A model generated the notes under the pieces. That model did no database searches. It had not been told where the DNA came from and was given only the letters and a program-made list of their open reading frames with translations. Below, in pieces: positions 2,498 to 30,792 of a DNA stretch of 64,000 bases. The translations under genes and the position numbers were made by a program. The stretch is taken from assembly GCA_017483575.1 (NCBI GenBank), contig JAFUWF010000005.1, forward strand, positions 114-64,113, written 5' to 3'. Numbering within the stretch: the stretch's first letter is position 1; each line of letters begins with the position of its first letter. The DNA is from Bacteroidales bacterium. GTDB taxonomy: Bacteria; Bacteroidota; Bacteroidia; Bacteroidales; P3.

Positions 2498-2519
2498 CAT
2501 TTTAAAATGAACGATAACT

Positions 2520-5255: not shown

Positions 5256-5263
5256 TATCTTTG
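5256..5263 (+). promoter_or_regulatory. -7 box (TATCTTTG) with upstream TTTG, promoter of tRNA-Gln
   Basis: ATTTGGCCAC-N-GTCGTATCTTTGCA cassette ends ~25 nt before the tRNA 5' end. A near-identical cassette occurs at 60270-60305. Confidence 0.55.
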
Positions 5264-5288
5264 CAGCCGATTTTTTGCAGAAAAAGAT

Positions 5289-5359
5289 TGTCCTATGGTG
5301 TAATGGTAGCACATCAGATTTTGGTTCTGCTTGTCTAGGTTCGAATCCTGGTAGGACAA
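5289..5359 (+). tRNA. tRNA-Gln (anticodon UUG)
   Basis: Hand-folded cloverleaf. Acceptor stem 5289-5295/5352-5358 has 7 perfect bp. D stem is 5298-5301/5309-5312 with GG in the loop. Anticodon loop TTTTGGT has TTG at positions 34-36. T arm is CTAGG-TTCGAAT-CCTGG. Confidence 0.85.
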
Positions 5360-5368
5360 CCTCTCGAG

Positions 5369-5398
5369 AGACGCTCCCAACGGAGCGTCTTTTTTTTT
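5369..5398 (+). terminator. Rho-independent terminator after tRNA-Gln
   Basis: AGACGCTCC-CAAC-GGAGCGTCT hairpin followed by a T8 run. Confidence 0.7.
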
Positions 5399-5439
5399 AT
5401 TTTCTCTCAACACAACATCATTTAAAAAAAAGTATCGCT

Positions 5440-6393
5440 ATGAGAACCCAAAGTATCTCCACCCGCGCGGTCATCCCCTCTCCCACCCCATTGTCCGCGG
5501 GTCCCAACCCCTACCTGCGCACCGTCGCCCTGCAGCGGCAGGTCTCGCACCGCGAAAACTCTCAGAACATCTGCCGCACCCTCCTCATCCACCTCTGCAA
5601 CTACGCCGGCCACGAAGTGAGGCTCCGGGAACTCACGGAGTCCTTCATCCGCCGTTTCGCCACCCATCTGCTCCGCGACACGCCGCTGCAACCCAACAGT
5701 GTGCGCACCTACCTGCAGAAGCTCCATGCCATCCTGGAGGAGGCCGTGCGGCAACGCCTGCTGCCCTACAACCCCATGCCCTTCATCGGCACCCTGGTGC
5801 CCCACGATGCCGGTCCCTCGCGTGCCTTCCTCACCACCGCGGAGATCCTCCTGCTGGCCCGCACCCCCTGCCGCCACCCCGCCGTCCGCCGGGCCTTCCT
5901 CTTCGCCTGCTTCACGGGCCTGCGCCTCTCCGACATCGAAACCCAGCGGTGGGAGCACCTGCACACCGTTGCCGGGGTCCCCACCATCGTCAAGCTGCAG
6001 AAGAAAACCCGTACCGAGATCCGCATCCCCCTCAACCGCGAAGCCCAGCGACTGCTGGACGAGGAGCCGCGCCGCGAAGGGGGCCCCGTCTTCTGCCTGC
6101 CCTCGCGCTCCACCATCGCCGCGGACCTCACCCTCTGGTCCGCCGCGGCAGCCCTGGGCAAACACCTCACCTTCCATGTCTCGCGCCACACCTTCGCCAC
6201 CCTCCTGCTCACCGCCGGCGTAGGCATCTACACCGTCAGCCGCCTCTGCGGCCACCGCAACATCCGCACCACCGAGATCTACGCCCACATCATCGACAGC
6301 ACCCTCCAGGACGGCGTGGCGCGCGTCAGCACCCTCTTCGACCAGCGCCGTCCCCCTCATCCCGACACAATATTTCTTCCCCCTTCACAATAA
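5440..6393 (+). CDS. Tyrosine-type site-specific recombinase/integrase (short, 317 aa)
   Basis: C-terminal catalytic region GLRLSD...HVSRHTFATLLL...GHRNIRTTEIYAH carries the R-H-R-Y signature. The ATG at 5440 lies inside track ORF 5275-6393. It sits 80 nt downstream of tRNA-Gln. Confidence 0.85.
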   Translation: MRTQSISTRAVIPSPTPLSAGPNPYLRTVALQRQVSHRENSQNICRTLLIHLCNYAGHEVRLRELTESFIRRFATHLLRDTPLQPNSVRTYLQKLHAILEEAVRQRLLPYNPMPFIGTLVPHDAGPSRAFLTTAEILLLARTPCRHPAVRRAFLFACFTGLRLSDIETQRWEHLHTVAGVPTIVKLQKKTRTEIRIPLNREAQRLLDEEPRREGGPVFCLPSRSTIAADLTLWSAAAALGKHLTFHVSRHTFATLLLTAGVGIYTVSRLCGHRNIRTTEIYAHIIDSTLQDGVARVSTLFDQRRPPHPDTIFLPPSQ

Positions 6394-6420
6394 AACCGCA
6401 ACGCCTGCGTTATAGAGGAC

Positions 6421-7437
6421 ATGAAGAACAACAAAGTCCTAATCGTATACACCGGCGGCACCATAGGTATGGTGCAGGATGAGAACGGTTCGCTCCACCC
6501 CTTCGCCCTCGACCGCATATACGACGCTGTGCCTCAGCTCAAGAGCTGCCAGTACGGCATCGATTCCGTCACCCTCGACAACATCATCGACTCCTCCAAC
6601 ATGACGCCGTCGCTGTGGGTGGACATCGCCAGCATCATCGAACGGGAATACGACCGCTACGACGGTTTCGTCGTCCTCCACGGCACCGACACCATGGCCT
6701 ACACCGCCTCGGCCCTGAGCTTCATGTTCAAGAACCTCGCCAAGCCCATCGTCCTCACCGGCAGCCAGCTGCCCCTGGGCATGCTGCGCAGCGACGGCCG
6801 CGAGAACATCATCTGCGCCCTCGAGATAGCCTCCACGCAGCAATGCACCATCCCCGAGGTCTGCATCTTCTTCGAGAACCACCTCTACCGCGGCAACCGC
6901 AGCACCAAGATGAGCGCCGCCAACTTCGACGCCTTCGAGACCTACAACTACCCCTCCCTGGCCAAAGCCGGCATCAACATCGCCTTCCGCGAGCACCTCT
7001 TCCTCCCCATGCCCACGGAGCCCCTGGTGGTGCGCAAGCAGTTCGACACCCGCGTGGCCATCCTCAAGCTCTTCCCCGGCATAGGCCCCGACGTGGTCAA
7101 CGCCGTCCTCGGCACTCCCAACCTCCAGGGCGTCGTCATCGAGACCTACGGCTCCGGCAACGCCCCCACGGACTCGTGGTTCATCTCCGCCCTCGAGGAG
7201 GCTATCCGGCGCGGCATCATCGTCATGAACGTCACCCAGTGCAAGGCCGGTTCCGTCGTCATGCGCCAGTATGCCGCCAGCTGCGACATGGACCGCATCG
7301 GCGTCATCGGCGGCGGCGACATCACCATCGAGGCCGCCATCACCAAGCTCATGTTCCTCCTCGGCAACTTCCCCCAGAACAAGGACCACGTCCGCCAGCG
7401 CCTCAGCCAGTCGCTCCGCGGCGAAATCAGCGAATAA
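6421..7437 (+). CDS. ansA: L-asparaginase, type I (cytoplasmic)
   Basis: N-terminal VLIVYTGGTIGM active-site motif, HGTDTM, GSQ(L)P; 338 aa. Confidence 0.85.
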   Translation: MKNNKVLIVYTGGTIGMVQDENGSLHPFALDRIYDAVPQLKSCQYGIDSVTLDNIIDSSNMTPSLWVDIASIIEREYDRYDGFVVLHGTDTMAYTASALSFMFKNLAKPIVLTGSQLPLGMLRSDGRENIICALEIASTQQCTIPEVCIFFENHLYRGNRSTKMSAANFDAFETYNYPSLAKAGINIAFREHLFLPMPTEPLVVRKQFDTRVAILKLFPGIGPDVVNAVLGTPNLQGVVIETYGSGNAPTDSWFISALEEAIRRGIIVMNVTQCKAGSVVMRQYAASCDMDRIGVIGGGDITIEAAITKLMFLLGNFPQNKDHVRQRLSQSLRGEISE

Positions 7438-7441: not shown

Positions 7442-8158
7442 ATGCGGCGAATAGGACTTATAGGACTCCTAGGACTTATAGGACTTATTTGCCCTGAAGC
7501 CCATGCCCAGGTGGGCAACCTCGGCAAATTCGACAGCAAGCTGCTGCACTGGGGCATACAGGTGGGCTACACCCACTCCAAGTTCGACCTCGAATACAGC
7601 CACGACGACACCCTGCGCGAGACCCTCCAGGGCACCACCTCCTACTATGCCCCGGGCTTCCACATCGCCGTCATCGGCGACCTGCGCCTGGGCAACTGGT
7701 TCAACCTGCGCCTCCTGCCCGGCGTGACGCTCATCACGCGCGACGTCAACTACTCCTGGGAGCAGAACTACCTGTCCACGCACCACCTTGCCGAACAGAG
7801 CCGCAAGGTGGAATCCGTCTACGGCGACTTCCCCCTCGAAATCAAATTCCGCGCCATGCGCTGGGGCAACTTCCGCCCCTACCTCACCGCCGGCGTCTCC
7901 TACGGCTTCGACTTCGCCTCGCTGCGCAAGAATCGCAACCGCACCGACGAGAGCATCATACGCCTCGAACCCAACGACCTGCGCTACACCATGGGCCTGG
8001 GCTTCGACGTTTTCCTGCGATACGTGAAGTTCGCCATCGACATCAAGATGACCTTCGGACTCCTGGACCTCCGCGTCGAGGACCCCGACGTCTACATCCA
8101 GGCCTTCGAGCACCTGCACTCCCGCACCTTCATGCTCTCCTTCACCTTCGAAGGCTGA
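7442..8158 (+). CDS. Outer-membrane beta-barrel protein (OMP_b-brl_2 / PorT-like family, tentative)
   Basis: Signal peptide MRRIGLIGLLGLIGLICPEAHAQ. Alternating beta-strand pattern (FPLEIKFRAMRWGNFRPYLTAGVSYGFDF, YTMGLGFDVFLRYVKFAIDIKMTFGL). ATG at 7442 inside track ORF 7271-8158. Confidence 0.55.
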   Translation: MRRIGLIGLLGLIGLICPEAHAQVGNLGKFDSKLLHWGIQVGYTHSKFDLEYSHDDTLRETLQGTTSYYAPGFHIAVIGDLRLGNWFNLRLLPGVTLITRDVNYSWEQNYLSTHHLAEQSRKVESVYGDFPLEIKFRAMRWGNFRPYLTAGVSYGFDFASLRKNRNRTDESIIRLEPNDLRYTMGLGFDVFLRYVKFAIDIKMTFGLLDLRVEDPDVYIQAFEHLHSRTFMLSFTFEG

Positions 8159-8372
8159 TCGGCGAATGCTCTTCCGCCGGCAGATTCATCGTCGGCGAAT
8201 TGAGCGTCAGAAGATTAAGCGTCGGCGAATTATGCGAATTAAGCGAATTTTCTATACAATATCTCGTCAAATTCGCTTAATTCGCCGACATATATAATTC
8301 GCTTAATTCGCTTAATTCGCCGACATATATAATTCGCTTAATTCGCTCAATTCGCCGACATATATAATTCGC
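8159..8372. repeat. Composite inverted plus tandem repeat between convergent genes
   Basis: GTCGGCGAATT occurs three times on the left. AATTCGC(TTAATTCGC)nCGACATATAT occurs three times in tandem on the right, as the reverse complement of the left units. The last unit supplies the final codons and stop of the minus-strand gene ending at 8347. Confidence 0.8.
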
Positions 8373-16885: not shown

Positions 16886-19800
16886 TTAATATTTGATTAC
16901 ACGAGCGACGATACCGTCGACACTGACAGTGTAGCTGCCGGCGCCGAAGCGAGAGAAGTCGACCACGGTGGACTTGCCCTCGAAGGTGGTGTTGACGAGC
17001 GTCACGCCCATCACGTTCATCACGCGGAGGCTGTGGCTGGCGCTGTAGGGGTTCTCGATGGTGATGTTCACCTGGTCGACAGCGGGGTTGGGATAGGCAT
17101 CCACAGTGGCTTCGAGAGAAGCGGCCTCAGGGACGAGGGTCGTCACGTCGTACTGCTCGCAGGTCTGGACGCTGTTGCCATTGATGACCATAGTGACATG
17201 ATAGCTACCGGTGAGACCGCCTTCTTCCTGATAGTAGGGGCCGTCGCCGACATAGGTGCCGTTGTGGTACCACTTGACGGAAGACTGGTCGATGCAGTTG
17301 CAGGTGTCGACAATGGAGATGACATCGCTGAAGATTGGCATGGTGTAGTTGCGGGAGAGGTTGACGAGGAAGCTGACGGGGATGGCAGCGCTCTCGAACT
17401 GAGGATAGGCGCTGTTGCGGAGGGTCAGGGTGGCGTTGTAGTTGCCGTAGAAGGCATCGACGGGGATGACGAGGTCGACGTTGCCGGCGGTGGCGATGTT
17501 GGTCCAAGCCACATCGGTGAAGCCCTGAGCGTGGGCGGCGTCGTCATAGAGGAGCTGATACTGGTCAGGGGTGCCGCTGGTCAGATAGTACTGGATGGCG
17601 GCAGCGTCGCCGGAGCAGTAGCCGCCAGCGCTGACGGCGATGCCGTTGCCAGAGGTGCCCTGGGTGTTGTCGAAGACGAAGGGAGCCACGATGACACCGC
17701 TGGTGGTGATGACCTGGGTGGGGCTGGCGAGCGTATAGTTGGCCATGTCTGCGCCGACGAGGGTCAGCTGGGCGGTGATGGTCTTGTTGTCGCCGACGTT
17801 GGCGTCGTCATAGGTGGCGACGGTGAGGAGACCGAGGTCGTCGTTGCCGAAGACGGGACTGGGGGTGCCCATGTTGTTCACGGTGGCGGTGTTGGTGCCG
17901 TCATAGAGCTTGGCGGTGACAACGGAGATGCCGGTGGCGACCACGGGGGCGGGTACGATGGTCAGGGTGTTGATCAGGGTGCCAGCGATCTGATAGTTGG
18001 TGTCAGCCGGGAGGGCGGTGATGGTGTAGACGCCGACGTTGCGGGCCTCGGGGACCTCATTGCCATTGGCATCGGTGACCACCAGCAGGGCGGGGACGAC
18101 GTTGGCGTTGTCGTCGACATAGGTAGCGGTGATTTCGCTCAGATAGGAGGTGCCGTTGTAGGTGACGGTGGTGTCGACATGCGACCAGGTGAGCGGATAG
18201 GTGTTGCGCTCGTAGATGGCATGGGTGAGGCAGTTGAAGGCGGGCATGGTGACGAGGGCGGGGGTCCAGCCGGTCAGGGTGTAGCCGGGACGGGAGACGG
18301 TGGGATAGGAGACGCTGTCGCCATAGAGGACGGAGACAACGGTATCCACGCCGGCCTCGACGGTGCCGCCGTTCAGCACGTAGGTGAGGTCATAGTGGTT
18401 GCGGACATAGTGGAAGTTGATGATGGTGTCGCGGCTGAAGTTCAAAACGGTATCCGTGGCCTTATCGGTGGTGAAGCCGACATAGGTGTTGGCGACCGTG
18501 ATGAGGTCCTGACCCATGGGGGCGATGCCGAAAGCGGAGTCGATCATGGTCTCGGGATAGGTGCCGTCGAGGGCCTGGCGGTAGTGATAGACCGTGTAGC
18601 GGGCATCGGTCAGGGCGTTGTACTCGTACCATTTGGCATAGAGGACGGTGTCGCAGGTGAGGACATCGTTGAGGAAGTTCCAAGGAGTGGTGAACTCAGG
18701 GTTGATGAAGTAGGCCGAGAAGATGGTGTCGGCGCCAACGTATGTGGGACGCGAGGGAGCCGGGACGATGCGGTTGTCGACAGTGTTGACGATGGCCACG
18801 GAGTCGGCATATCCGGCCTGGCCCTGGCGGGCGTTGTAGTTGACGAAGGTGACGCGATAGCCGGCGCCCACAGTGTAGTGGAAGGGCACGGAGTCGGCAT
18901 CCATATTGGGGACAATGGTATAGCGGGCAGGCAGGTAGGCGCTGACATCCTGGCCGTACTTGCCGCCGAGGACGGTGACGTTGGCACCGGTCAGGGGGTT
19001 CACCACGAGGATGCGGGCGTTGTTGACGATGACGTTGAGGCTGCTGGGGCTCAGGCTGGCGACGGAGTCGAGGCTGTTGATGACCACGGTGCTGGTGGCG
19101 CCGCTGACACCGCCAAGATAGTTAACCATGCCGTTCTGCAGGACGACGGTATCCTCGATGTCGTCGATATAGAGAGAACCCTGAATCATGTTGCCCTGGA
19201 GGTCGATGACGGCACCGTTCTTGATGGTGTCGATGCTACCGCCGATGGTGTTGCGAGCCAGGAAGACAGTGTCGTTGGCAGCCGCGGCGGCGAGACCGAG
19301 GGTGCGGAGGTACTTGCGATAGTTGCCCGAACGGAAATAGGCGTCGGCGCCGATGGTGGCGCTGGTGGCGGCAGCGGTGCTGTCGAGGAGGGTCAGTGTG
19401 CCGGTGGCGTCGCTGCCGAACTGGGCGAAGACGGCGCTGGGGACATTGAGGGAGGAGATGGAAGCGTTGGAGGAGTCGAGCAGGCTCACGGCAGGAGCGT
19501 CGGTGAGGCTGTTGAGATAGCTGCCGGCGATGGTGACGTTGGCACCGTCGTGGGCAACCACAGGCTGGCCATACGACTTGGCGCCGAACTGGCGGAGGGT
19601 GAGGGTGGCGGCGTTGACATCAAAGATGTTGCCGGAACCAGCGGGGGTAACGATGTCGCTGTCGGTGGCATTGCCGAACCAGGAGAGCTCAGTGCCGTTC
19701 ACGCTGACCAGAGCCGAGGAGGGGTCGACGTAGGAACTGACCATGGGGTAGCCCATCTGATAGATGGTCAGGGGCTTGCTGATGGCGACGGGGGCGTTCA

Positions 19801-20389
19801 CACGGATGGTGTCCATAAAGTTGAGAACGGCCGAATCAGGGCTGAGCGTAATGGCGTCGGTGAACGAAGAGTAGGCAGACATCTGGCCGTCGACCACGAG
19901 GGGGCGTGCGGTGCCGAGCATGGTGCCGCTGACGGTCATGGTGCGGTTGAAGGTGCCATCGACAGACTGCGACATCAGCGAGGCCGGGGCGAAGTAGCCC
20001 GTGTCGAGGGTCTGACGGCTGGAGGTGCCGAGGACGTAGCAACGGTTATTGGCGTCGAAGGCCACGATGAAAGCATAGCCATAGGTGGTGCTGTCAACGG
20101 TGGCAGAAGCGGAGTAGTTGCCATTGAGGGAGGTGATGGCCATCACCGTCGAGGCAAGGGCGTTGTCGGCTGCCACGAGGGCGGTGCCACCCCAAGAAGA
20201 CATGAGGTAGGCCGAGTCGGCGATGTAGAGCTGCCCGGGGTTGGCAGCATAGATGGTGGCACTGGTGAGTGCCGCGCGGTCGAGGGTGCGCACGTCGACA
20301 TTGACGTTTACGCTCTGTGCCCTCAGGCCGTTGCCGGGCATCACCGATGCAATCAGTGCCCCCAGCAAGAAGAGTGTAGTTCTTTTCAT
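16886..20389 (-). CDS. Large T9SS-secreted adhesin-like surface protein
   Basis: Signal peptide. Listeria-Bacteroides (InlB B-type) repeats (GYTLTGW...). YDG/MBG-like units (KLYDGTNTATV..., NYTLASPTQVITTSGVI). C-terminal T9SS CTD (VDAYPNPAVDQVNITI...GSYTVSVDGIVARVIKY). 1167 aa. Confidence 0.8.
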   Translation of the reverse strand: MKRTTLFLLGALIASVMPGNGLRAQSVNVNVDVRTLDRAALTSATIYAANPGQLYIADSAYLMSSWGGTALVAADNALASTVMAITSLNGNYSASATVDSTTYGYAFIVAFDANNRCYVLGTSSRQTLDTGYFAPASLMSQSVDGTFNRTMTVSGTMLGTARPLVVDGQMSAYSSFTDAITLSPDSAVLNFMDTIRVNAPVAISKPLTIYQMGYPMVSSYVDPSSALVSVNGTELSWFGNATDSDIVTPAGSGNIFDVNAATLTLRQFGAKSYGQPVVAHDGANVTIAGSYLNSLTDAPAVSLLDSSNASISSLNVPSAVFAQFGSDATGTLTLLDSTAAATSATIGADAYFRSGNYRKYLRTLGLAAAAANDTVFLARNTIGGSIDTIKNGAVIDLQGNMIQGSLYIDDIEDTVVLQNGMVNYLGGVSGATSTVVINSLDSVASLSPSSLNVIVNNARILVVNPLTGANVTVLGGKYGQDVSAYLPARYTIVPNMDADSVPFHYTVGAGYRVTFVNYNARQGQAGYADSVAIVNTVDNRIVPAPSRPTYVGADTIFSAYFINPEFTTPWNFLNDVLTCDTVLYAKWYEYNALTDARYTVYHYRQALDGTYPETMIDSAFGIAPMGQDLITVANTYVGFTTDKATDTVLNFSRDTIINFHYVRNHYDLTYVLNGGTVEAGVDTVVSVLYGDSVSYPTVSRPGYTLTGWTPALVTMPAFNCLTHAIYERNTYPLTWSHVDTTVTYNGTSYLSEITATYVDDNANVVPALLVVTDANGNEVPEARNVGVYTITALPADTNYQIAGTLINTLTIVPAPVVATGISVVTAKLYDGTNTATVNNMGTPSPVFGNDDLGLLTVATYDDANVGDNKTITAQLTLVGADMANYTLASPTQVITTSGVIVAPFVFDNTQGTSGNGIAVSAGGYCSGDAAAIQYYLTSGTPDQYQLLYDDAAHAQGFTDVAWTNIATAGNVDLVIPVDAFYGNYNATLTLRNSAYPQFESAAIPVSFLVNLSRNYTMPIFSDVISIVDTCNCIDQSSVKWYHNGTYVGDGPYYQEEGGLTGSYHVTMVINGNSVQTCEQYDVTTLVPEAASLEATVDAYPNPAVDQVNITIENPYSASHSLRVMNVMGVTLVNTTFEGKSTVVDFSRFGAGSYTVSVDGIVARVIKY

Positions 20390-21397: not shown

Positions 21398-21756
21398 TGT
21401 TGTTGTTATTTTTTTAATTTGTTTTTTCTAATTTCATATTCCGTTTTCACGAAACCTTTTCCACCTAATCATGGTGTCTCTATAACGGCACCATTCGGAT
21501 AATATTGTACAGAAAATCAAAAATATTTGTTAAAAAATATTAAAAATTCTCAAAAAACAGCAAAATTTCCAGCCATACTAAAATACTGATAACCAACAAC
21601 AAAACACAATCATACTCTTCCATCCACTTACCACCCTCCTACCCTCCTCCTACCACCCTCCCCTCCGGAAAAAGATGGTACGGTCGGAGTACGAAAAACA
21701 ATAAAACCGGAGACACCACGGGTGCGCCTCCGGTTTGTTTGGGGTATAACGGGGGG

Positions 21757-22974
21757 TTAGCGACGGACGACAATCTTCGCCACGCTGTCGGCCACGCGAA
21801 GCATGTAGACGCCGTTGGCCAGGTTGCGGAGGTCGATGCGGGTCTCGGTTCCGTTGACGACGAAGGAGGCGATGATGCTGCCGCGCATGTCAAAGAGGAC
21901 GGCCTTGCCGCTGACGCCGCTGACGGTCAGCATGTCAGAAGCAGGGTTGGGATAGACGCTGACAACGGCGGTCTGGACACCTTCGATGCCAGTCACCTGG
22001 GGCACGCTGACGGGGTTGATGGCCATGGGGTAGACATAGATGTAGTACCACATATCATAGTCGGCATAGTAGGAGCTGTCGACAACCACACCGGCGGCAG
22101 GTTCGGCCCATTTCTCGAAGGAGCCGTTGGTGAGAGTCTGAGCCATGCCGGCATCGGACACGCCGTTGTTCTTGCTCTCCCAGTAGCTGAAGGCCTGCTT
22201 GCGGAGGGTGTCGCCAGGGGCGACGACGAAGAGGATGTCGTCGAGGAAGCCGCCGCTGAGGGTGAAGCTGAAGCGGGGGTCGGCGGCGGCGATGTCGGTC
22301 ATCATGTCGCTGACGGTCTTGGTGCTGTCGTACTTGTAGCCCCAAGCCAGGGCGGTGTCGGCCCAGTTGACGGCCATGATTGCCTGGTTGCTGCCATTGC
22401 CCACCCAGTAGAGGATGTCGCTGGCGGCGATGGTGGCCTCTTCAGGCTGCGGCTCGACAACGGGAGCGGGAGCCATGATCATGGTGTCGGCGGGATAGGA
22501 CTCATAAGTTTCTTCGTCCATGGGCATCCAGTCGACAAAATCGCCATTGACCAAAATGTCGGAGGAAGCACCCATCGACTGATTGCTCGTACCGTCGGCG
22601 GCTTTCCAGTTGTACCACCACCAGCCGGCAGTGCCAACAAGATTGAGGCCCAGGTCGGCATTGGCATAGGACAGGTTGTTGACGATGGTGTAGGTGGTGG
22701 TGCCATGCTCAATGGTTAGGTTGGCATCGTAGGCGGCGATGGTGTCCATCAAGTCAGCGATGGAGACATTGGAGCCATTCCACTGCACACCCCAGGCAAT
22801 GCCGATATTACCTGCCGTGGCGTCGTTCCAGGTGACAGCGATGACAGCGCGGTTGCTGCCCGTGCCAGTCCAGAACTGGATGTCGCTTTGCGGAACAACG
22901 GGGTTCTCATACTGAGCCATAGCGCCCACAGAGAGCATCAGGCCCATTGCAATAGTAAGTACTTTTTTCATCAT
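21757..22974 (-). CDS. T9SS-secreted protein with two copies of an unassigned Trp-rich module; cobalamin-riboswitch controlled
   Basis: Start MMKKVLTIAMGLMLSVGAMAQ (22972-22974) inside track ORF 21757-23070. Modules begin SDIQFWTGTGSNRAVIAVTW and SDILYWVGNGSNQAIMAVNW. CTD is VSVYPNPASDMLTVSG...GVYMLRVADSVAKIVVRR. The riboswitch lies immediately upstream. Confidence 0.8.
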   Translation of the reverse strand: MMKKVLTIAMGLMLSVGAMAQYENPVVPQSDIQFWTGTGSNRAVIAVTWNDATAGNIGIAWGVQWNGSNVSIADLMDTIAAYDANLTIEHGTTTYTIVNNLSYANADLGLNLVGTAGWWWYNWKAADGTSNQSMGASSDILVNGDFVDWMPMDEETYESYPADTMIMAPAPVVEPQPEEATIAASDILYWVGNGSNQAIMAVNWADTALAWGYKYDSTKTVSDMMTDIAAADPRFSFTLSGGFLDDILFVVAPGDTLRKQAFSYWESKNNGVSDAGMAQTLTNGSFEKWAEPAAGVVVDSSYYADYDMWYYIYVYPMAINPVSVPQVTGIEGVQTAVVSVYPNPASDMLTVSGVSGKAVLFDMRGSIIASFVVNGTETRIDLRNLANGVYMLRVADSVAKIVVRR

Positions 22975-23089
22975 AATGATACTGTTTTTAAGGTTTATAC
23001 ATTCTTTCATTCCAGTATCGGGAAGCGCCTGCGGGGGAGAAATCCATAACGAAGACCAACGACACACCATGGGTGTCTGTCACCGGATG

Positions 23090-23290
23090 CCTTTTCCTCG
23101 AAAGCGATGCCGACTTATGCGTTTTGGCAGGTCTTCTGGCTTGCTCCTCTCGACCCTGTCTTCCCATGCTCCTATGGCGGCGCACAGTGACTAACAGATT
23201 GGGTCTCAAACTCTCGAGCTTACAGCAGCGGGACTGCGCAGGACTCTCACCTGCTTCCCTTTTCGTACCCCGAAGGGTAACCAAAACGGG
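23090..23290 (-). promoter_or_regulatory. Cobalamin (B12) riboswitch, copy 1
   Basis: The minus strand reads ...GGTTACCCTTCGGGGTACGAAAAGGGAAGCAGGTGAGAGTCCTGCGCAGTCCCGCTGCTGTAAGC...CACTG...GGGAAGACAGGG...GCAAGCCAGAAGACCTGCC. This covers the conserved core and the B12 box. Confidence 0.85.
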
Positions 23291-23292
23291 TG

Positions 23293-23300
23293 CAAAAATA
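23293..23300 (-). promoter_or_regulatory. -7 promoter box (TATTTTTG on minus strand) driving riboswitch copy 1
   Basis: TTTTGTATTTTTGCAC immediately 5' of the riboswitch, identical in the paralogous copy at 30494-30501. Confidence 0.55.
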
Positions 23301-23320
23301 CAAAATAAAAACAATATGAC

Positions 23321-23352
23321 AAAAAAAAGAAGCCCCGAAGGACTTCTTTTTT
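23321..23352. terminator. Intrinsic terminator after the giant T9SS gene
   Basis: A-run, GAAGCCCC-GAA-GGACTTC hairpin, then T-run, lying between the stop at 23375 and the next promoter. Confidence 0.6.
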
Positions 23353-23374
23353 GTGTGTGAAGGAAGTGTCTCGA

Positions 23375-26300
23375 CTAGCGTTTCTTGACAATCTTGTGCA
23401 CAGTGCCTTCGGCACGGAGCATGTAGACGCCCTCGGCGAAGGACGCGAGGTCGATGACGTTGTTTCCTTCGAGCAGACGGTAGCTGCCCACCATGCGTCC
23501 GGAGAGGTCGAAGAGCTGTGCCTCGACGCTGCGGGAGACAGCGACGTTGACACGGTCGGTGGCGGGGTTGGGCCATACGGCCTCGATGGCGAGGTCGATG
23601 TCCTCGATACCGATAGGCTGCGGGGCGACGTACTCGTTCAGCACGGCTACGCCTGTGAGGTCGAAGCCGCCGCTACCCCAGACGGTGTCGCTGGTGGGCC
23701 AGGGGTCGTTGACGATGTGGCCGAAAGCGTCGTAGGTGGCGTACTCGGGGTCGATGGTGCCGACGACGTCGACAATGCGCACATAGACGATGCTGTCGAC
23801 GTTGATGCCGGTGCTGTCGCGCAGTTCCTCAAGGTCGAAGGGGGTGCCATATCCCACGCGGAACTTGCCGGCGAGGTTGTTGATGAAGGTGGGGTCGACA
23901 ACGGAAACCACCTGCGTCTCGGTCTGGGTGAGGCTGGTGGCGGGGAAGCGGACGAAGCGCTCTCCGTCGGAGCTCACCTCGACGAAGGCCAGTTCGAGGA
24001 AGAGGTCGTTGAAGGAGTTCTCGAAGACCGCGAAGTCGGGGCCTTCACCGTTGCGGATAGGAGTGGCAAAGGTGAGGGTGGCGGTGCCGCCGTCGCCAAG
24101 GCTGACGGCCACGGTGGTCGAGGTGCCGGCAGGGCCGATGGCCATGGAGTCGGCGCCGTAGTGCACGACGGGGCCTTCGGGGTCGGTGATGTCCACGGGG
24201 CCGCGGACGACGGTGCAACCCGTAGCCCAGGCCACGATGGCGCTGCTGTCGGCAGCAATGGCGTTGCAACCCTCGGTGCCCACAGCGCCGCAGAAGGGGC
24301 CGTGCTCGGGCACAGGAGGTTCGACGGGGCTGGTGCCGGTGGTGTCGGGCACGGTGACGGGATGGATGGTCATGGGGTAGACGCTGGTGTAGATCCAGTA
24401 GGTGACACCATCGTACTCATAGCTGGAGCTGTCCACCACGATGCCTGCGGCCGGGTCGCTCCACTTCTCGAAGTCGCCGTTGCTGAGGGCCTGGGCCATG
24501 CCGGCGTCCGACAGGCCGTTGTTCTTGCTTTCCCAGTAGTTGCCGGCGGTGATACGCAGGGTGTCGGTCATGCCGGCGGCGGTATCGATATAGAGAATGT
24601 CGGCGAGGAATCCGGTGCCGGTGTAGCTGAAGCGCGGGTCGGCGGCGGCGATGGCATCCATCATGTCGGTGACGGTGGCGATGCCGTTGTAGCGGTAGCC
24701 CCACGCCAGGGCGGTGTCGGCCCAGTTGACGGCCATCACGGCCTCGTTCGAGCCCTCGCCCACCCAGTAGAGGATGTCGCTGGCGGCGATGGTGGCCTCG
24801 ACGGGCGTCTCGGTGGTGTCGACGGGAGTGGTAGTGGTGTCAGGCACAGAGACGGGTGTGGGAGCCTTGGTCCAGGCTTCCTGCATGTAGTAGCCATACT
24901 GGAAGTCCCAACCGATGGCGGAGTTCATGTCGCCGTATTTGAAGACATCGCCGTTGTGGAGCGTCGAGGAGGCACCTGCACCGGCACTGACTCCGTTGAG
25001 GTTGGTCCACCAGAAGTTGTAACCCACAGTGGGGTCGACAGGCGAGAGGCCGAGGGTGTCGCCATTGTCGAGTATGAAGTGGATGTCGCCACTCATAGAA
25101 GGCGAGCCATCAGTCCAGAAGCGCGGGTCGGCGGCGGCGATGTCGTTGACCATGGTCTGTGCCGTGGTGCTGCCGTTGAAAAGATAGCCCCAGGCGAAGG
25201 CCGTGTCAGGCTGGGCATAGTTGACGATGAAGACAGCACTGTCGGCACCGGTGCCCACCCAGTAGAGGATGTCGCTGAAGGCGATGGTGGCATCGATGGG
25301 GTCGGCAGGAGGTCCAGGAGTGACCGAAGGCGGCGTCACGGGCACCACGGTGCCGTAGACGAAGTAGCAGTCGGTGGAGATTTCGATCAGCGAGCCGGGA
25401 TTGATCCACTCGTCCTCGAACTCGGAGGCATCGAGCATCATGCCGTCGAGCTTCAGACAGTTGTAGTAGTTCACGCCGGCGGTGACGGTATAGAGCGAAT
25501 CGTCATCGTCGACAAAGCGCACCATATCCATCTCGAAAATGGAGCCCATGTAGCGGCTGTAGTGATAGTAGAAGCGGGGGTCGTAGGTATCCAGGCTGTC
25601 CAGCACATCGGAGACGAAGACACCCTCGTCGTCGTCGAAGGCCAGACCCCAGGCATAGGTGGTGGGGGTGTCGTCCTCGTCGACCCAGTTGATGATGACG
25701 ATGGCGCTGTCGGGACCATGGCCTGCCCAGAAGAGGATGTCGCTGTTGGTGATGGTGCCGGGCTCAATGGTGTCGATGGGGGCAGGGGTGGTGGTATCGA
25801 TGGCAACAAGGAGGTTGTCGATGCCGCAGTAGCGATAGCCGGGACCCGTGGTGCTGGCGGTAGTGCTTGTAACCTCCCACTTGAAGGTGAGACGGGCATC
25901 GGCGGGCATGCCGGCATACTGGCTGAAACGGACGGTGTCGTGATGAAGCACACGGTTGTCGGCGGCCATGGTGTCGAGGCCAACGAAGGTGGCGGTGTCG
26001 CTCGTTATGTAGCCTACTACCAGACGGGCGCCATTGCTGCTGGTGCGGCGGTCGAAAGTGAGGACGGTCTGCGAAAGGGCCTGCTCGAACGTGGGCAGAA
26101 TGGCATAGCGGCTGGTACCGGTGGCGTTCATGTCGGCAATGTGGTCGGCGTTGTCGCCAGTGTAGATCTGGCTGCCGATGAGGGCCAGGAAAGCGTCGTT
26201 GGCGGCGATGGCGCCAAAGCTGTTGGTGCTGGTCGAGTAGCCGATGCCACCGAAATAGGTGGAGGTCTCAGAGTTGGGGGTATAGGCATACTGTGTCGTA

Positions 26301-29300
26301 CCGTTGCCGACAGCCGTCCAGCATTCGGGCATCATGGCGCCTGCCATGTGGGGACGAATCGACTGGTTGCTGACGTAGCCGGAGAAGTCCTCCTGGTAAG
26401 GCAAAACCTGTGCTGTGGCACAAGGATTGACCGGGGGCTGAGGAGTGGTGGTGTCGGCCGTAGCGGCGTGGACGCTGAGGTTGTCGATGCGGAAGTCGTT
26501 GTCGCTACCGCTGACAGTGCTCTCGCCGTAGAAGGCCAAACGCACCGTCTGTCCGGTGAAGGCAGAGAGCGAGATGCTGGCCTGGGAAACCGTGTTGGAA
26601 ACTGTGGCGAGGGCATAGTCGTCGCGAGCAGTGTCGCTACCCCACAGCGCCACAGGGGTCCAGCTGGTGCCGTTGTCGGTAGTGGCCAGGACGGCAAAGC
26701 GGTCGTCGGCACCGGGAACAGCCTCCGGGGCATCGGCATTGTTGTAGTCGGTCAGCATATAGTCGAACGTCAACTCGGCATTCTCGGTGAGGGAGATTTC
26801 GGGTGTGACAATCCAGTATTTGCACGACGTGCCGTAGATGTTGACCTTGATATGGGGCGACGACTCGAAAGCCGTGGTCGAAAGCGACCAACCACTGCTC
26901 GCGGAGGTCAACGTAGCACTTTGGGTGGAATCAACATAGAGGCCAGAGTACCTGTTCCAGCAGGAAGAGAGCTGCGAAATATTGGTCATATTGTCGAAGT
27001 TCATCTCCCAAGGCAGCGGCATCGGGGCGCACGACGTGGTAAAGCTTGCGCTGCGGGCATTGGTGGGGTTGCTCCAGCAGATGCTGCGGACATCGACGGT
27101 GTAGGTGGTGCTGGGAATGAGACCCGTGAGGGCATAGGTAGTGGCACCCGTGATGGTGATGCTATCGGCATTGACACCATCGCTCCAGCGGACCAGATAC
27201 GAGCCGGCCTCGCTGGGGTCGGTCCACACGAGGGTGGCGCCATAGGCGCTGACGCTGTCAGCCGTGAGGGTAGCCGGACGGTTGCAGCTGCTGATGGTGT
27301 CGACCGTCAGATTGTCAATATAGCTGGTAATAGCGGTGGTGCCAGTGCTGGTCTGCATGATGGCGATGCGGCGGCCCGTGCCGGCATAGCCGCTAAGTTC
27401 CACTTCGAACTCGTTCCAGCCGACGACCGTGGGGGTAAGGGTTGCCAGGCGGGTGAAAGTGGTGGTGTCGGACACGTTGTCGCTGACACCGACGGCTATC
27501 TTCACCTTATTAATATTATATGTTGTCCCTCCGTATTTGTACATAAAACTCACCTTCAGCGTGTTAACACCATCCTCGAATTCGGGCAGGTAGGCTACGC
27601 TGTACTCCTTGATGTCGCTGGTGGTGCCTTTCGAGTACATCTTGAGCGACTTGAAGCCCTCGTAAGCGTTGCCCGAACCCGTGGCGCAGTAGGGGTAGTT
27701 GTTGGTCACCAGGCTGTTGGACGAATTCATATACAGGCGGTTCCAGCAGCGGTTCATGCCCTGCGACTGGGTGGCGGTCCAATCCTCAAAGCCCTCTTCG
27801 AAAGGAAGCTGCGCAACAGGAGCGCAGAGCGTGGACACAGACATTGTTTGCGGCAAAGTAAGGGCACCGTCGCTGCAGACGGAAACCACCCGCAGCTCAT
27901 AGTCGGTCGAAGCCATAATACCGTCAACAACCACGACGGTATCGTAAAAGTCGGCGCTGTCGCTGACACCACCTGCAGTAAGATAGTAACGGTAATGGTT
28001 CACCAACGTGGGGTCGGCAACATGCAGCGTGAATCCGTCAGTAGTGATATTGTCAACACTGATGCTTTGGGCGCGCACGCAGGCGGGCATCTCGTGTACA
28101 TCAATCTCGTCAACATACCACGATTTGGCCGAGCCGCCGGAGGGCAGATAGCGCAGCGCAATGCGGGAACCCGCAGGGGCATCGACAAAGAGACTGGTAC
28201 AGAAGTCAAAACCATTGGTAAACTGCGAACTGGCGTAGCCAACCACGCTGACAAACGAACTGCTGTCAGTTGCATCGGTGACATAGCCCACCTGCAGCGT
28301 GCCGCCATAATTGCCATTCTCCGATGGACGAGCCACAAAACTTATCTCAAGGTTGCTGATTTCCTGGTCAAATTCAGGCAACACCACGATGTCGCGCGAA
28401 TCGCTGTAGTTGCCATAGATACGCATCGTGTAGCCCTCGTCGCCGTAGGCGTAGGTGACGCTCTGCGAACGGGGGAAAACCTCCAGGCGGTCCAACGAAC
28501 GGGCTTTCAGGAAACCCCAACAAGGAAGTGTGCTGTCAGCCACCGCATATCCAAACCCATTGCTCACATCCTCAAACTGGTTGAAGTTCTCGTGATAGGG
28601 GGTGGCGATGATGCCACAGGCTGTGCGGAAAACCGCCTCGGTAACGCCAGTGGTGGTGTCGGCACAGAGCGTGCGAACGCTTACCACATAGCGCATATTG
28701 GGCTGCAAGTCACTGATAGTATAACTGTTGCTGTAAACCTCCACACTGTCGCCAGCGGCGTACACCATGTAGTGGTTTGTCCCGTTGGGGTCAACAATTG
28801 TGATGTCGGCCGACGACGAGGTGACATTCGAGACCAACACCTGCGAAGGTCGCACGCACGAAGGCAACTCGCTTACCGTCACATTGTCCAGATAGGCGGG
28901 TCCGTTGTCATTCGACCGCAGCGCCAGTCTGCCTTCCGTAAAACCGGCAAAGGATACATCGAAGTGTGTCCACCCATTGCCGTCAGGCAGACAGGTGGCG
29001 ATAGGAGTGAACGTGCTGTCGACCGCAACATCGGACATAACACCCACCTTAAAACCATGACGGTAGGTAGACAGAACATCGAAACTCAGCTGCAGAGCCT
29101 CGGGGCTGTCTTCAAAGGGGGGCAGCACAAGAATGGTGGGGCTCGTCACACGGCTACTGACATAGAGACACTTGCCTCCGGAAACGTTGACCGACGTGGA
29201 GTTGTTGACATAAGGGTCGGACGCGCTGTAGGCGTTCTTCAAGTCCCAGCAGAACACCTGGCTGGCAAAGGATACCGAGGAGCTGGAATAGGACATACCG

Positions 29301-30133
29301 TTGTACGACTGGAAGTCTTCGCTCCAGGGCAGGTCCGCGTGGGCAATCGTCACGCAGGGGGTACGGAAGGAAGTGTTGAGTTCGTAGGTCTGTGTGCCGT
29401 CGGAGCAGTTGCTCACGAGAGTCACCTTGTAGGCCGTGTTGGCCGTCAGGCCAGAGAAAGTGTAAGTATGGGTTGTAATAATAGCGCTGTCCACCAGCGT
29501 GGTGCCGGCAAACAGGCGCAGCGTGTAGTTGTTCACATTGGCGGTGTCGTTCACCGTAACGTCAACAGAGGTCGTAGTGATGTTGGCCACGCTGACGCTC
29601 TGCGCCCTTGCGCACGAGGCACCGGCATTGGGGTTGGTGGCAGCGGTGGCGGTGGTGAGGGAGAACATGCACGAGGAGCTGATCTCCATCACGTCGCCGT
29701 CGGCCATGGCCTGCGAGCCGTAGGCACTGGCATAGCTGCCATTGATTGTGTAGCACCAGTAGCTGGCCGACGAACCCGAGACAAGCGAGCCGTCGTTGTA
29801 GTAGAATCCCGTCATGAAGCCGGAACTGATGCCGGTATAGGTCGTGCGCTCGTCGTAGGTGGCAATGGTGTCGAGCATGTTGGCGGCCGTAGCCGAGCCG
29901 TTCCAGTGTACGCCCCAGGCCAGGGCGAAGTTGCCGTTGGGATTGTCGTCCCATCCGATGATGACCACGGCCGAGTTGCTACCCGTGCCCACCCAGTACT
30001 GCACGTCGGAGGCCGAAAAGGTCACCGACTTGCGCTGCGGCGGCAGTTCGTGGCCGTCGTTGTTGCTCAACTGGGCTGTGGCGCCAAACGCCAGCGTCAG
30101 CCCGAGAGCAAGTGTCAATAGTTTTTTTACCAT
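23375..30133 (-). CDS. Giant (2252 aa) T9SS-secreted multidomain surface protein; cobalamin-riboswitch controlled
   Basis: Signal peptide MVKKLLTLALGLTLAFGATAQ. One N-terminal and three C-proximal copies of the Trp-rich module. About six FN3-like plus jelly-roll (choice-of-anchor-like) units. A GPDFAVFEN...LELAFVEVSSDG domain. T9SS CTD (VWPNPATDRVNV...GVYMLRAEGTVHKIVKKR). Confidence 0.85.
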   Translation of the reverse strand: MVKKLLTLALGLTLAFGATAQLSNNDGHELPPQRKSVTFSASDVQYWVGTGSNSAVVIIGWDDNPNGNFALAWGVHWNGSATAANMLDTIATYDERTTYTGISSGFMTGFYYNDGSLVSGSSASYWCYTINGSYASAYGSQAMADGDVMEISSSCMFSLTTATAATNPNAGASCARAQSVSVANITTTSVDVTVNDTANVNNYTLRLFAGTTLVDSAIITTHTYTFSGLTANTAYKVTLVSNCSDGTQTYELNTSFRTPCVTIAHADLPWSEDFQSYNGMSYSSSSVSFASQVFCWDLKNAYSASDPYVNNSTSVNVSGGKCLYVSSRVTSPTILVLPPFEDSPEALQLSFDVLSTYRHGFKVGVMSDVAVDSTFTPIATCLPDGNGWTHFDVSFAGFTEGRLALRSNDNGPAYLDNVTVSELPSCVRPSQVLVSNVTSSSADITIVDPNGTNHYMVYAAGDSVEVYSNSYTISDLQPNMRYVVSVRTLCADTTTGVTEAVFRTACGIIATPYHENFNQFEDVSNGFGYAVADSTLPCWGFLKARSLDRLEVFPRSQSVTYAYGDEGYTMRIYGNYSDSRDIVVLPEFDQEISNLEISFVARPSENGNYGGTLQVGYVTDATDSSSFVSVVGYASSQFTNGFDFCTSLFVDAPAGSRIALRYLPSGGSAKSWYVDEIDVHEMPACVRAQSISVDNITTDGFTLHVADPTLVNHYRYYLTAGGVSDSADFYDTVVVVDGIMASTDYELRVVSVCSDGALTLPQTMSVSTLCAPVAQLPFEEGFEDWTATQSQGMNRCWNRLYMNSSNSLVTNNYPYCATGSGNAYEGFKSLKMYSKGTTSDIKEYSVAYLPEFEDGVNTLKVSFMYKYGGTTYNINKVKIAVGVSDNVSDTTTFTRLATLTPTVVGWNEFEVELSGYAGTGRRIAIMQTSTGTTAITSYIDNLTVDTISSCNRPATLTADSVSAYGATLVWTDPSEAGSYLVRWSDGVNADSITITGATTYALTGLIPSTTYTVDVRSICWSNPTNARSASFTTSCAPMPLPWEMNFDNMTNISQLSSCWNRYSGLYVDSTQSATLTSASSGWSLSTTAFESSPHIKVNIYGTSCKYWIVTPEISLTENAELTFDYMLTDYNNADAPEAVPGADDRFAVLATTDNGTSWTPVALWGSDTARDDYALATVSNTVSQASISLSAFTGQTVRLAFYGESTVSGSDNDFRIDNLSVHAATADTTTPQPPVNPCATAQVLPYQEDFSGYVSNQSIRPHMAGAMMPECWTAVGNGTTQYAYTPNSETSTYFGGIGYSTSTNSFGAIAANDAFLALIGSQIYTGDNADHIADMNATGTSRYAILPTFEQALSQTVLTFDRRTSSNGARLVVGYITSDTATFVGLDTMAADNRVLHHDTVRFSQYAGMPADARLTFKWEVTSTTASTTGPGYRYCGIDNLLVAIDTTTPAPIDTIEPGTITNSDILFWAGHGPDSAIVIINWVDEDDTPTTYAWGLAFDDDEGVFVSDVLDSLDTYDPRFYYHYSRYMGSIFEMDMVRFVDDDDSLYTVTAGVNYYNCLKLDGMMLDASEFEDEWINPGSLIEISTDCYFVYGTVVPVTPPSVTPGPPADPIDATIAFSDILYWVGTGADSAVFIVNYAQPDTAFAWGYLFNGSTTAQTMVNDIAAADPRFWTDGSPSMSGDIHFILDNGDTLGLSPVDPTVGYNFWWTNLNGVSAGAGASSTLHNGDVFKYGDMNSAIGWDFQYGYYMQEAWTKAPTPVSVPDTTTTPVDTTETPVEATIAASDILYWVGEGSNEAVMAVNWADTALAWGYRYNGIATVTDMMDAIAAADPRFSYTGTGFLADILYIDTAAGMTDTLRITAGNYWESKNNGLSDAGMAQALSNGDFEKWSDPAAGIVVDSSSYEYDGVTYWIYTSVYPMTIHPVTVPDTTGTSPVEPPVPEHGPFCGAVGTEGCNAIAADSSAIVAWATGCTVVRGPVDITDPEGPVVHYGADSMAIGPAGTSTTVAVSLGDGGTATLTFATPIRNGEGPDFAVFENSFNDLFLELAFVEVSSDGERFVRFPATSLTQTETQVVSVVDPTFINNLAGKFRVGYGTPFDLEELRDSTGINVDSIVYVRIVDVVGTIDPEYATYDAFGHIVNDPWPTSDTVWGSGGFDLTGVAVLNEYVAPQPIGIEDIDLAIEAVWPNPATDRVNVAVSRSVEAQLFDLSGRMVGSYRLLEGNNVIDLASFAEGVYMLRAEGTVHKIVKKR

Positions 30134-30289
30134 GTTTTAAATACTGTTTTAAAAAGTTAAACAATTAATCGTCTCTCTTCCACAACATCCGGTAAAAAAG
30201 AACTTTCGCAAAACGGGAAAACAGACAATCGCGCACAGAAGACAATCTGCCCTGCCATGGGCAAACAGAGACTCTGCTGACGGTAGGCC

Positions 30290-30495
30290 TTTCCTCGAAA
30301 GCGTCCCGGATATTTTTATCGTTTTGGCAGGTCTTCTGGCTTGCTCCTCTCGGCCCTGTCTTCCCATGCGGCTATGGCGTCACACAGTGACATAACAGAT
30401 TGGACCTCAAACTCTCGAGCTTACAGCAGCGGGACTGCGCCGGACTCTCACCGGCTTCCCTTTTCACACCCTTGCGGGTGACCAAAACGGCTGCA
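30290..30495 (-). promoter_or_regulatory. Cobalamin (B12) riboswitch, copy 2
   Basis: The minus strand reads GGTCACCCGCAAGGGTGTGAAAAGGGAAGCCGGTGAGAGTCCGGCGCAGTCCCGCTGCTGTAAGC...CACTGTGTGACGCCATAGCCGCATGGGAAGACAGGG...GCAAGCCAGAAGACCTGCC. It is a paralogue of copy 1. Confidence 0.85.
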
Positions 30496-30501
30496 AAAAT
30501 A
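30494..30501 (-). promoter_or_regulatory. -7 promoter box (TATTTTTG on minus strand) driving riboswitch copy 2
   Basis: TTTTGTATTTTTGCAG immediately 5' of the riboswitch. Confidence 0.55.
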
Positions 30502-30673
30502 CAAAATAAAACTCATTCCGCCAAAAAAAACTTCTCCTCCCCCACCCCATCCACCATCCGAACCAACCATCAACGGAACGCCAACGGACCATCATCGGAT
30601 CAAAAACGCTCCATCAACGCACCGCCAACCAATCCTCCACAAACCCCTGTCAACCAACCATCAACATCGCCAC

Positions 30674-30792
30674 TTCTCATATCGTATTCATATAGTATTC
30701 ATATACTTCTCATATAGTATTCATATACTGTATATAAGAAGTATATGAGAAGTATATGAATACTATATGTATACTATATAAGAACAGTCGAA
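30674..30792. repeat. AT-rich long imperfect palindrome (family P), copy P2, inverted relative to P1
   Basis: Arms match P1 and are centred at 30729. The asymmetric flank GAACAGTCGA is on the right, the reverse complement of the P1 left flank. Confidence 0.8.

Follow-up and report, generated by a model that had tools for sequence, protein, structure and literature searches.

The 64-kb stretch of contig JAFUWF010000005.1 of an uncultured ruminant-gut Bacteroidales bacterium analyzed in the present study (the window) contains a pair of minus-strand genes at 21757-30133, each of which lies directly downstream of its own cobalamin riboswitch (Rfam). They encode a small and a giant protein that share a tryptophan-rich module, and the question raised by this locus is what the module is and what it may bind. 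Judging from its homologues, the module is a divergent branch of the DUF4430 family, the transcobalamin-like domains of the SLBB β-grasp fold. Arrays of the module probably serve as corrinoid traps at the cell surface; homology, fold and genomic context all point to binding of this type.

Six modules in two riboswitch-controlled proteins

The features that define the two genes, with lengths in nucleotides (nt) and amino acids (aa), are listed below. Both proteins are putative cargo of the type IX secretion system (T9SS).

21757-22974, minus strand: gene of the small T9SS cargo protein, 405 aa from MMKK (open reading frame and translation, Pfam, NCBIfam)
23375-30133, minus strand: gene of the giant T9SS cargo protein, 2252 aa (open reading frame and translation, Pfam, NCBIfam)
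23109-23300, minus strand: cobalamin riboswitch aptamer of the small gene (Rfam RF00174, 108.2 bits, full model)
30309-30501, minus strand: cobalamin riboswitch aptamer of the giant gene (Rfam RF00174, 111.7 bits, full model 1-189)
22462-22902, minus strand: module S_M1, small protein aa 25-171 (regular expression, BLASTP)
22000-22446, minus strand: module S_M2, small protein aa 177-325 (regular expression, BLASTP)
29633-30028, minus strand: module G_N1, giant protein aa 36-167 (regular expression, hidden Markov model [HMM], BLASTP)
25328-25762, minus strand: module G_C1, giant protein aa 1458-1602, the most divergent copy (regular expression, HMM, BLASTP)
24839-25300, minus strand: module G_C2, giant protein aa 1612-1765 (regular expression, HMM, BLASTP)
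24344-24805, minus strand: module G_C3, giant protein aa 1777-1930, the copy used for the structure model (regular expression, HMM, BLASTP, AlphaFold2)
21760-21957, minus strand: T9SS type A sorting domain, small protein aa 340-399 (PF18962 42 bits, TIGR04183 34 bits)
23378-23578, minus strand: T9SS type A C-terminal sorting domain, giant protein aa 2186-2251 (PF18962 39.9 bits, TIGR04183 33.4 bits)

A preliminary description of this DNA, made from the letters alone, had assigned two copies of the module to the small protein and another four to the giant one. The regular expression SD[IV].[FY]W.G.G matched exactly six places (aa 30 and 185 of the small protein; aa 42, 1464, 1620 and 1785 of the giant protein), and the module coordinates given in that description agreed with ours to within approximately 30 nt. 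The six modules (132-154 aa) were alignable across their full length. All 15 pairs were significant by BLASTP (E 1.7e-67 to 0.002 at a database size of 1e6; 24-73% identity), including the N-terminal copy G_N1 against the others (E 1e-10 to 1e-17). Tryptophan accounts for 2.8-6.1% of the residues in the modules versus 1.5% in the central part of the giant protein.

The motifs proposed earlier were retained to different extents. AWG[VYL]x[FWY] was found in all six copies and the full start motif S-D-[IV]-x-[FY]-W-x-G-x-G-[SPA]-[ND]-x-A-[VI]-x-x-[IV]-x-W in five, G_C2 ending in Y instead of W. As written, D-x-[IL]-A-x-x-D-x-R-[FT] described two copies but not the other four, and N-G-[DS]-[FV] described four but not the other two. 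Across 732 distinct modules, the family signature in the numbering of G_C3 was W11, G13, G15, A31, W32, G33, D53-x-R55, N93, G94, G107 and D108, with D53 (0.94) and R55 (0.85) the most conserved polar residues.

The small protein comprises a signal peptide, two modules and the sorting domain, and is 100% identical to the database entry P0001, [quoted passage not shown]. The giant protein is built in the order signal peptide, module, four units of fn3 and choice-of-anchor J, three modules, a region that we call domain X, and the sorting domain. Signal peptides were called by eye from the translations. Both proteins thus combine an N-terminal signal peptide with a PF18962 / TIGR04183 tail, the features that characterize T9SS type A cargo, and no Cys (the lipoprotein signal) was present in their N-termini, MMKKVLTIAMGLMLSVGAMAQ and MVKKLLTLALGLTLAFGATAQ. 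We infer that both are anchored through the sorting domain and not by lipidation.

Placement of the module among transcobalamin-like domains

The preliminary description could not place the module in a named family. It can be placed after all, in DUF4430, but via intermediate sequences only. The relatives retrieved with the small protein included three-module proteins that pass DUF4430 (PF14478, "transcobalamin-like C-terminal domain") at 62 bits. An HMM built from the six window modules only scored 74-107 bits per module on the relatives P0140, P0138, P0121, P0110 and P0105 (independent E-values 1e-15 to 1e-25, library size 1.8 billion), and these same five proteins pass PF14478 at 37-62 bits (cut-off 23.8). 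Because the window-only HMM strongly matches PF14478-positive relatives, the chain of homology from the window module through its family to DUF4430 is solid. The link is not a short motif alone, since in P0140 positions 3-68 of the 72 in the PF14478 model were matched inside one module (57.6 bits). When 39 diverse modules were taken individually, 10 matched PF14478 and no other family recurred. The subfamily typified by P0138 as a whole is already tagged PF14478 and PF18962 in public annotation.

Comparison of the fold with transcobalamin and intrinsic factor, a check proposed in the preliminary description, pointed to transcobalamin, with weak E-values and modest TM scores. The AlphaFold2 model of G_C3, based on a 39-sequence module alignment, had a predicted local distance difference test score (pLDDT) of 96.8 and a predicted template modeling (TM) score of 0.89. 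Among 350,542 Protein Data Bank (PDB) chains searched with Foldseek, the top matches were transcobalamin (7qbg, 7qbe, 7qbf, 2bb6, 8ixt and 2v3n) and haptocorrin (4kki), which occupied ranks 1-3, 6-10 and 15 at a probability of 0.75-0.98; they were followed by other β-grasp proteins, such as MoaD and SUMO.

The secondary structure of the model was E17-24, E29-36, H42-52, E56-59, E66-69, E89-92, E108-113 and E119-128. The comparison with the transcobalamin-like SLBB clade was made at the level of the order of elements, and this order, namely, two strands, a helix and a β-hairpin, agrees with that of the clade. The β-hairpin after the helix defines this clade and makes prominent B12 contacts in transcobalamin, and the elements of strands 3 and 4 have also been named as parts of the ligand site (PMC1796856). 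In the model, D53-x-R55 lies at the start of the clade-diagnostic hairpin, and strands 3 and 4 are where the N-G and G-D pairs are located. As judged from the order of secondary structure, the conserved D-x-R, N-G and G-D residues would therefore fall in ligand-site elements.

Two other identities were considered and rejected. No carbohydrate-binding module (CBM) family was found for the module in Pfam or NCBIfam and no CBM occurred among its structural matches. BtuG, BtuH, BtuJ and BtuK were all absent from the top 50 structural matches, and the folds reported for these proteins in the literature differ (PMC13616437).

Genomic context of the family, domain X and other features of the region

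A profile search retrieved 1280 cluster representatives (50% identity clusters) at E ≤ 1e-3, including 615 at E ≤ 1e-10. Family proteins hold one to seven modules each, nearly all carry a T9SS-type tail, and many are module-only proteins. They are annotated solely as "hypothetical" or "T9SS sorting domain protein". Scanning 185,579 species genomes with a pattern of the M2/C3 type yielded 206 relatives, from which 77 loci were kept; because of this pattern, the 77 loci are skewed towards close relatives from ruminant guts, and all of them belong to uncultured Bacteroidales of ruminant guts, including "bacterium P3".

A riboswitch homologue was located upstream on the same strand in 67 of the 77 close loci. 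All 72 riboswitch matches were on the strand of the gene, and each of the 14 checked against Rfam was confirmed. Because these loci are close relatives, ten distant members were examined singly (P0110, P0121, P0055, P0138, P0188, P0215, P0140, P0153, P0225 and P0388). RF00174 was present immediately upstream of the gene or operon in all ten. Two of them, P0188 (locus L083) and P0388 (L089), have no T9SS tail and end in C-termini such as ...FYKVKVSDTAK; therefore, the riboswitch association reaches beyond T9SS cargo. The preliminary description had asked whether homologues elsewhere sit behind cobalamin riboswitches, and held that its proposal would fail if the module mapped confidently to an unrelated domain and its homologues showed no such association. 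The homologues do lie behind these riboswitches, and no unrelated domain was matched with confidence.

The family is also linked to the genes of B12 uptake. Five distant members share an operon with a TonB-dependent receptor, a DUF5074 protein or both. In the L079 operon, the riboswitch is followed by a BtuB homologue, a BtuG homologue and a six-module protein; the BtuB1 homologue matches 8blw_A (E 6e-120) and the BtuG homologue matches 8blw_B (E 3e-50). Neighbors of the BtuB/BtuG/BtuF type likewise occur in L081, L086, L087 and L088, with an additional BtuF-type periplasmic binding protein in L081.

Several further observations were made at these loci. Two unannotated genes (575 and 293 aa) come after the module gene of L089. 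In L080, the public minus-strand call (795 aa, no Pfam match) appears to be wrong; the plus strand (3209-7263) encodes, right after the riboswitch, a signal-peptide protein with choice-of-anchor-like regions and modules, broken by a masked stretch. In a related metagenome-assembled genome (L025), a SAM-II riboswitch (8131-8190, plus strand, 59.2 bits) is located approximately 1.7 kb downstream of the module match. T9SS proteins with Listeria-Bacteroides or InlB-type B-repeats (Flg_new, Flg_new_2) repeatedly adjoin module genes, as at 16886-20389 (minus strand) in the window and 2447-5680 (minus strand) in L078, and in P0140 InlB-type B-repeats alternate with modules in the same protein.

Two parts of the giant protein accompany its modules:

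23579-24331, minus strand: domain X, giant protein aa ~1935-2185, between the last module and the sorting domain (homologue search, model)
25769-29626, minus strand: middle region, giant protein aa ~170-1455, with fn3 and choice-of-anchor J / MAM-like repeats (Pfam, NCBIfam)

Domain X has more than 8000 homologues and no Pfam assignment. Most of the homologues stand alone, as proteins of approximately 328 aa with a T9SS tail or as lipoproteins of approximately 260 aa. In 60 of the 77 close loci, domain X is either part of a module protein or the product of the gene directly following a module gene, and it is also fused or adjacent in the distant loci L079, L081/82, L084, L086 and L087. Its conservation (65-84% identity) is above that of the modules. 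The model of domain X (pLDDT 81.6) has a jelly-roll-like fold, for which the best query-normalized TM scores (TMq) of 0.44-0.45 (E 6e-4 to 2e-3) were obtained with the BtuG1-BtuH fusion 8blw_B and BtuH2 (7biz), both of which bind B12; generic CBM32 and F5/8-C domains gave 0.23-0.37. A sequence profile of domain X matched 8blw_B marginally (E 0.016), whereas the profile without the sorting domain gave no sequence match to 8blw_B, and we dropped this match as sequence-level proof. Because the sequence match was marginal and not robust, the likeness to BtuH is held at the level of the fold only, and domain X possibly has a BtuH-like fold.

In the middle region, Pfam fn3 was matched in three stretches (62 bits) and NCBIfam choice_anch_J (NF038128) in four stretches (102.7 bits). 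This region is likely a stalk or a set of additional binding units.

Apart from the two riboswitches listed above, Rfam identified no riboswitch in the window. The two share approximately 90% identity, which extends to a TAttTTTG box at the 5' edge. Homologous short hairpins with CCCATGG and no clear T tail are situated 40-60 nt downstream of each aptamer (23061-23077 and 30245-30266, minus strand) and may belong to the expression platform. A terminator-like structure follows the small gene:

21704-21736, minus strand: intrinsic terminator-like hairpin approximately 20 nt past the stop codon of the small gene (13-bp stem, 7 GC pairs, T tail TATTGTTTTT)

Since this hairpin follows the small gene, the latter looks like a single-gene unit. 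No comparable terminator was found between the stop codon of the giant gene (23375) and the second riboswitch (23300), and read-through from the giant gene into the small gene is therefore possible.

None of the flanking genes is related to B12; their products are an M3 peptidase, RNase R, a coiled-coil protein, a T9SS YDG/Flg_new protein, OmpA and UvrB. A near-palindrome of 125 nt occupies part of the divergent intergenic region that separates the riboswitch of the giant gene from the M3 peptidase gene; its 62-nt arms at 30667-30728 and 30730-30791 are 84% complementary and consist of 11-nt AT-rich tandem units. This intergenic region also contains three copies of CCATCAACGGAACGCCAAC with 22-nt spacing at 30567-30629.

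Possible function of the module arrays

The preliminary description regarded the module as the obvious candidate for the ligand-binding unit. The fold match to transcobalamin, the DUF4430 link and the riboswitch-linked homologues all favor this proposal, and binding of a ligand by the module is predicted on this basis. When intracellular cobamide is scarce, both cobalamin riboswitches would release expression and the signal peptides would take the proteins across the inner membrane. The T9SS would then export the proteins and anchor them to the surface by their C-terminal sorting domains, where the module arrays would work as multivalent traps for a corrinoid, whichever corrinoid this may be. 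In the giant protein, the fn3 / choice-of-anchor J stalk would project the arrays, and domain X, with its BtuH-like fold, would cap them. The ligand would finally be passed from the arrays to the BtuG-BtuB outer-membrane importer, which would be encoded elsewhere in this genome and belongs to the same operon in relatives.

Several points weigh against the proposal that the arrays are corrinoid traps. The β domain of transcobalamin binds B12 jointly with an α-toroid domain, and because the latter is absent here, the affinity and even the identity of the ligand are uncertain. An isolated β-domain fragment of intrinsic factor binds cobalamin alone, with an affinity well below that of the intact protein, so that binding by a single module is conceivable; the arrays would then compensate by avidity. 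The transcobalamin-like SLBB clade may also bind other soluble ligands, as noted by Burroughs et al. and the reviewers of their study (PMC1796856). The earlier label "unassigned" was a fair one: the module gave no Pfam (PF14478 at E ≤ 0.1) or NCBIfam match in the window's own proteins, the modeled module alone did not match PF14478 at E ≤ 1, and sequence profile searches of the PDB with the 6-module and 39-module profiles yielded nothing meaningful. The structural matches to transcobalamin were weak by E-value (0.06-0.44) and modest in TM score (TMq 0.39-0.51, approximately 110 columns). Three close loci had no riboswitch within 6 kb (Rfam), and several of the remaining riboswitch-negative loci are cut by contig ends. 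Moreover, btuB, btuG and btuF are not adjacent to either gene within the window.

Part of this evidence would also fit modules that are mainly structural, namely, β-grasp spacers or a stalk, similar to the PKD domains of BtuH and BtuK, that project a B12-binding domain X, with the riboswitch reflecting domain X. The number of modules varies freely from 1 to 7 per protein, and tandem copies are sometimes 98-100% identical, a typical feature of spacer arrays. Domain X surpasses the modules in conservation, stands alongside them in most of the close loci and in the distant operons, and has the B12-binding BtuH domain among its closest folds. However, the link between domain X and BtuH consists of a TMq of 0.44-0.45 and a fragile sequence match. 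The module is a member of a family of ligand-binding folds, and its conserved residues would fall in ligand-site elements (PMC1796856). Many relatives consist of modules only. A pure spacer role is disfavored because the small protein, whose gene has a riboswitch and a terminator of its own, is made up of two modules plus a sorting domain, and we consider this explanation unlikely. The modules may otherwise bind a different target, such as a protein that carries B12 in another organism or in the host, a cobamide precursor, a lower ligand or a surface polymer of neighboring B12 producers, and thereby act as an adhesin or piracy receptor under B12 hunger. SLBB domains bind diverse soluble ligands (PMC1796856), no counterpart of the α domain of transcobalamin is present, the giant protein carries domains typical of adhesins (fn3, choice-of-anchor J and MAM-like), and P0140 interleaves its modules with B-repeats. 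In contrast, the module matched no family of carbohydrate-binding or adhesin domains, and the tight family-wide operon coupling to BtuB/BtuG is the pattern of direct cobamide binders in Bacteroides (PMC13616437). A different target thus appears quite improbable.

A separate question is why the last modules of the two proteins are so similar. The preliminary description put their identity at approximately 70%, pointed to a perfectly identical stretch, and took both as signs of recent duplication or gene conversion:

22400-22440, no strand assigned: 41-nt stretch identical to 24759-24799, encoding EATIAASDILYWVG at the start of S_M2 and G_C3 (exact identity)

The similarity itself was borne out: S_M2 and G_C3 share 73% protein and 80% DNA identity, and the run is exact (42 nt in the codon alignment). 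The recent event was not. A run of at least 41 nt had P = 0.0015 under independent codon choice in a codon-resampling simulation, codons at identical residues were shared at 81% in S_M2/G_C3 versus 59-76% in other pairs, and the high identity of the two riboswitches also fits conversion. Homogenization does occur in the family: neighboring modules of L026 (aa 827 and 982 of the open reading frame) are 100% DNA-identical over 441 nt and those of L001 and L066 approximately 98% identical, with exact runs of 388 and 380 nt, which shows very recent tandem duplication or homogenization in these three loci. However, the independent-codon null is wrong for paralogues and the run is not exceptional, because 81% of the codons at identical residues are shared and the peptide spanned is almost invariant; by our own calculation, 13 identical codons in a row have a probability of 0.81^13, or approximately 0.07. 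In comparisons across genomes, pairs of modules with 70-80% aa identity had exact runs of 35 nt (95th percentile) and up to 65 nt (maximum). S_M2 and G_C3 differ at 20% of DNA positions. Furthermore, for each module of the window, the genome of another species contains a counterpart (78-92% aa identity) that is nearer than the closest paralogue in the window (73%): G_N1 in L053 (85%), G_C1 and G_C2 in L047 (92% and 91%), and S_M2 in L010 and L014 (81-83%), the counterparts of S_M2 and G_C3 being at 78-83%. The split between S_M2 and G_C3 is therefore old. On the basis of exact-match statistics, codon resampling and nearest-neighbor identities, we reject gene conversion as a recent event in this genome, and recent duplication or ongoing conversion between the two genes is a very improbable source of the similarity.

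The proposed corrinoid traps resemble known systems in part. In animals, the C-terminal domain with which transcobalamin, intrinsic factor and haptocorrin contact B12 has the SLBB β-grasp fold. The module is similar to this β domain in its top PDB matches, its homology via PF14478 intermediates, its extracellular location and its link to B12. Unlike transcobalamin, the modules have no α-toroid partner and occur in tandem arrays of up to 7 copies; they also have motifs of their own (W-x-G-x-G and A-W-G, located in strands 1-2), and some subtypes have a Tyr/Trp-rich hairpin at the C-terminus. In addition, the window copies are below the Pfam threshold, and their binding of B12 is a prediction. 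The T9SS proteins of the P0138 type belong to the same family; they score 91-97 bits per module with the window-only HMM and share the T9SS tail, the riboswitch and domain X / BtuG neighbors. However, they are nearer to the Pfam model (YWMYNVNG...NGDF.KWGD), belong to other lineages of lower GC content and are annotated "hypothetical".

Secreted or cell-wall-anchored transcobalamin-like SLBB proteins of bacteria and archaea were predicted to be B12 scavengers (Burroughs et al. 2007, PMC1796856). The present proteins share with them the signal peptide, surface anchoring, paralogues encoded together and the predicted scavenging of B12 or its precursors. The proteins described in 2007 are mainly from Firmicutes and archaea, with sortase anchors and transporter neighbors of the CbiO/CbiQ type, whereas those reported here are T9SS cargo of Bacteroidota with cobalamin riboswitches, TonB-dependent uptake by BtuB/BtuG, and domain X. 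Bacteroides species use several riboswitch-controlled surface B12 binders (PMC12751083, PMC13616437), and the accessory surface cobamide binders of B. thetaiotaomicron are BtuG, BtuH, BtuJ1/2 and BtuK1 (PMC6143338, PMC8941943, PMC12751083, PMC13398666, PMC13616437). Similar to these, the module proteins are riboswitch-controlled, are encoded with btuB/btuG in relatives, and are presumed to be exposed at the surface and to relay cobamide to BtuB-BtuG; similar to BtuH, the giant protein has a domain, domain X, that resembles a B12-binding domain in fold. In contrast, the fold of the module differs from the β-propellers of BtuG and BtuK, the DUF4465 jelly roll of BtuJ and the distinct globular domain of BtuH, and the module proteins are T9SS cargo with multivalent arrays instead of lipoproteins with one site each. 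A 2026 review lists BtuG, BtuK, BtuH and BtuJ of B. thetaiotaomicron as lipoproteins throughout, and a term search of this review found no mention of transcobalamin, T9SS or β-grasp (PMC13616437). Our literature searches on DUF4430/PF14478, on T9SS together with cobalamin riboswitches and on transcobalamin-like proteins found no study of this family, and the only relevant earlier work found was the 2007 SLBB study (PMC1796856).

The ligand-binding fold, the regulatory logic and the idea of scavenging were hence already known. The divergent subfamily, its multivalent tandem architecture, delivery by the T9SS and the coupling to a BtuH-like partner domain differ from what was known. We are evenly divided on a broader proposal, in which these proteins represent a fifth class of cobamide binders on the surface of Bacteroidota. 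They would be delivered by the T9SS, carry arrays of up to seven sites that are transcobalamin-β-like without the α-toroid, perhaps with neighboring modules sandwiching the ligand, and feed BtuG-BtuB together with domain X as a "B12 flypaper" that is widespread in uncultured ruminant-gut Bacteroidales.

Cobamide scavenging decides the success of gut Bacteroidota, and the known toolkit (BtuG, H, J and K) consists of lipoproteins from one cultured species. The module family adds another fold, another export route and a multivalent architecture to this toolkit, and provides the first riboswitch-anchored functional context for a bacterial transcobalamin-like domain. The B12-scavenging prediction made in 2007 is now directly testable with confidently modeled domains of approximately 150 aa, and the modules could serve as compact B12-capture reagents. 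Ruminants obtain their own B12 from rumen microbes; high-capacity surface binders could influence the cobamide available to these animals. Competition among ruminant-gut microbes for cobamides also bears on the B12 supply of the host.

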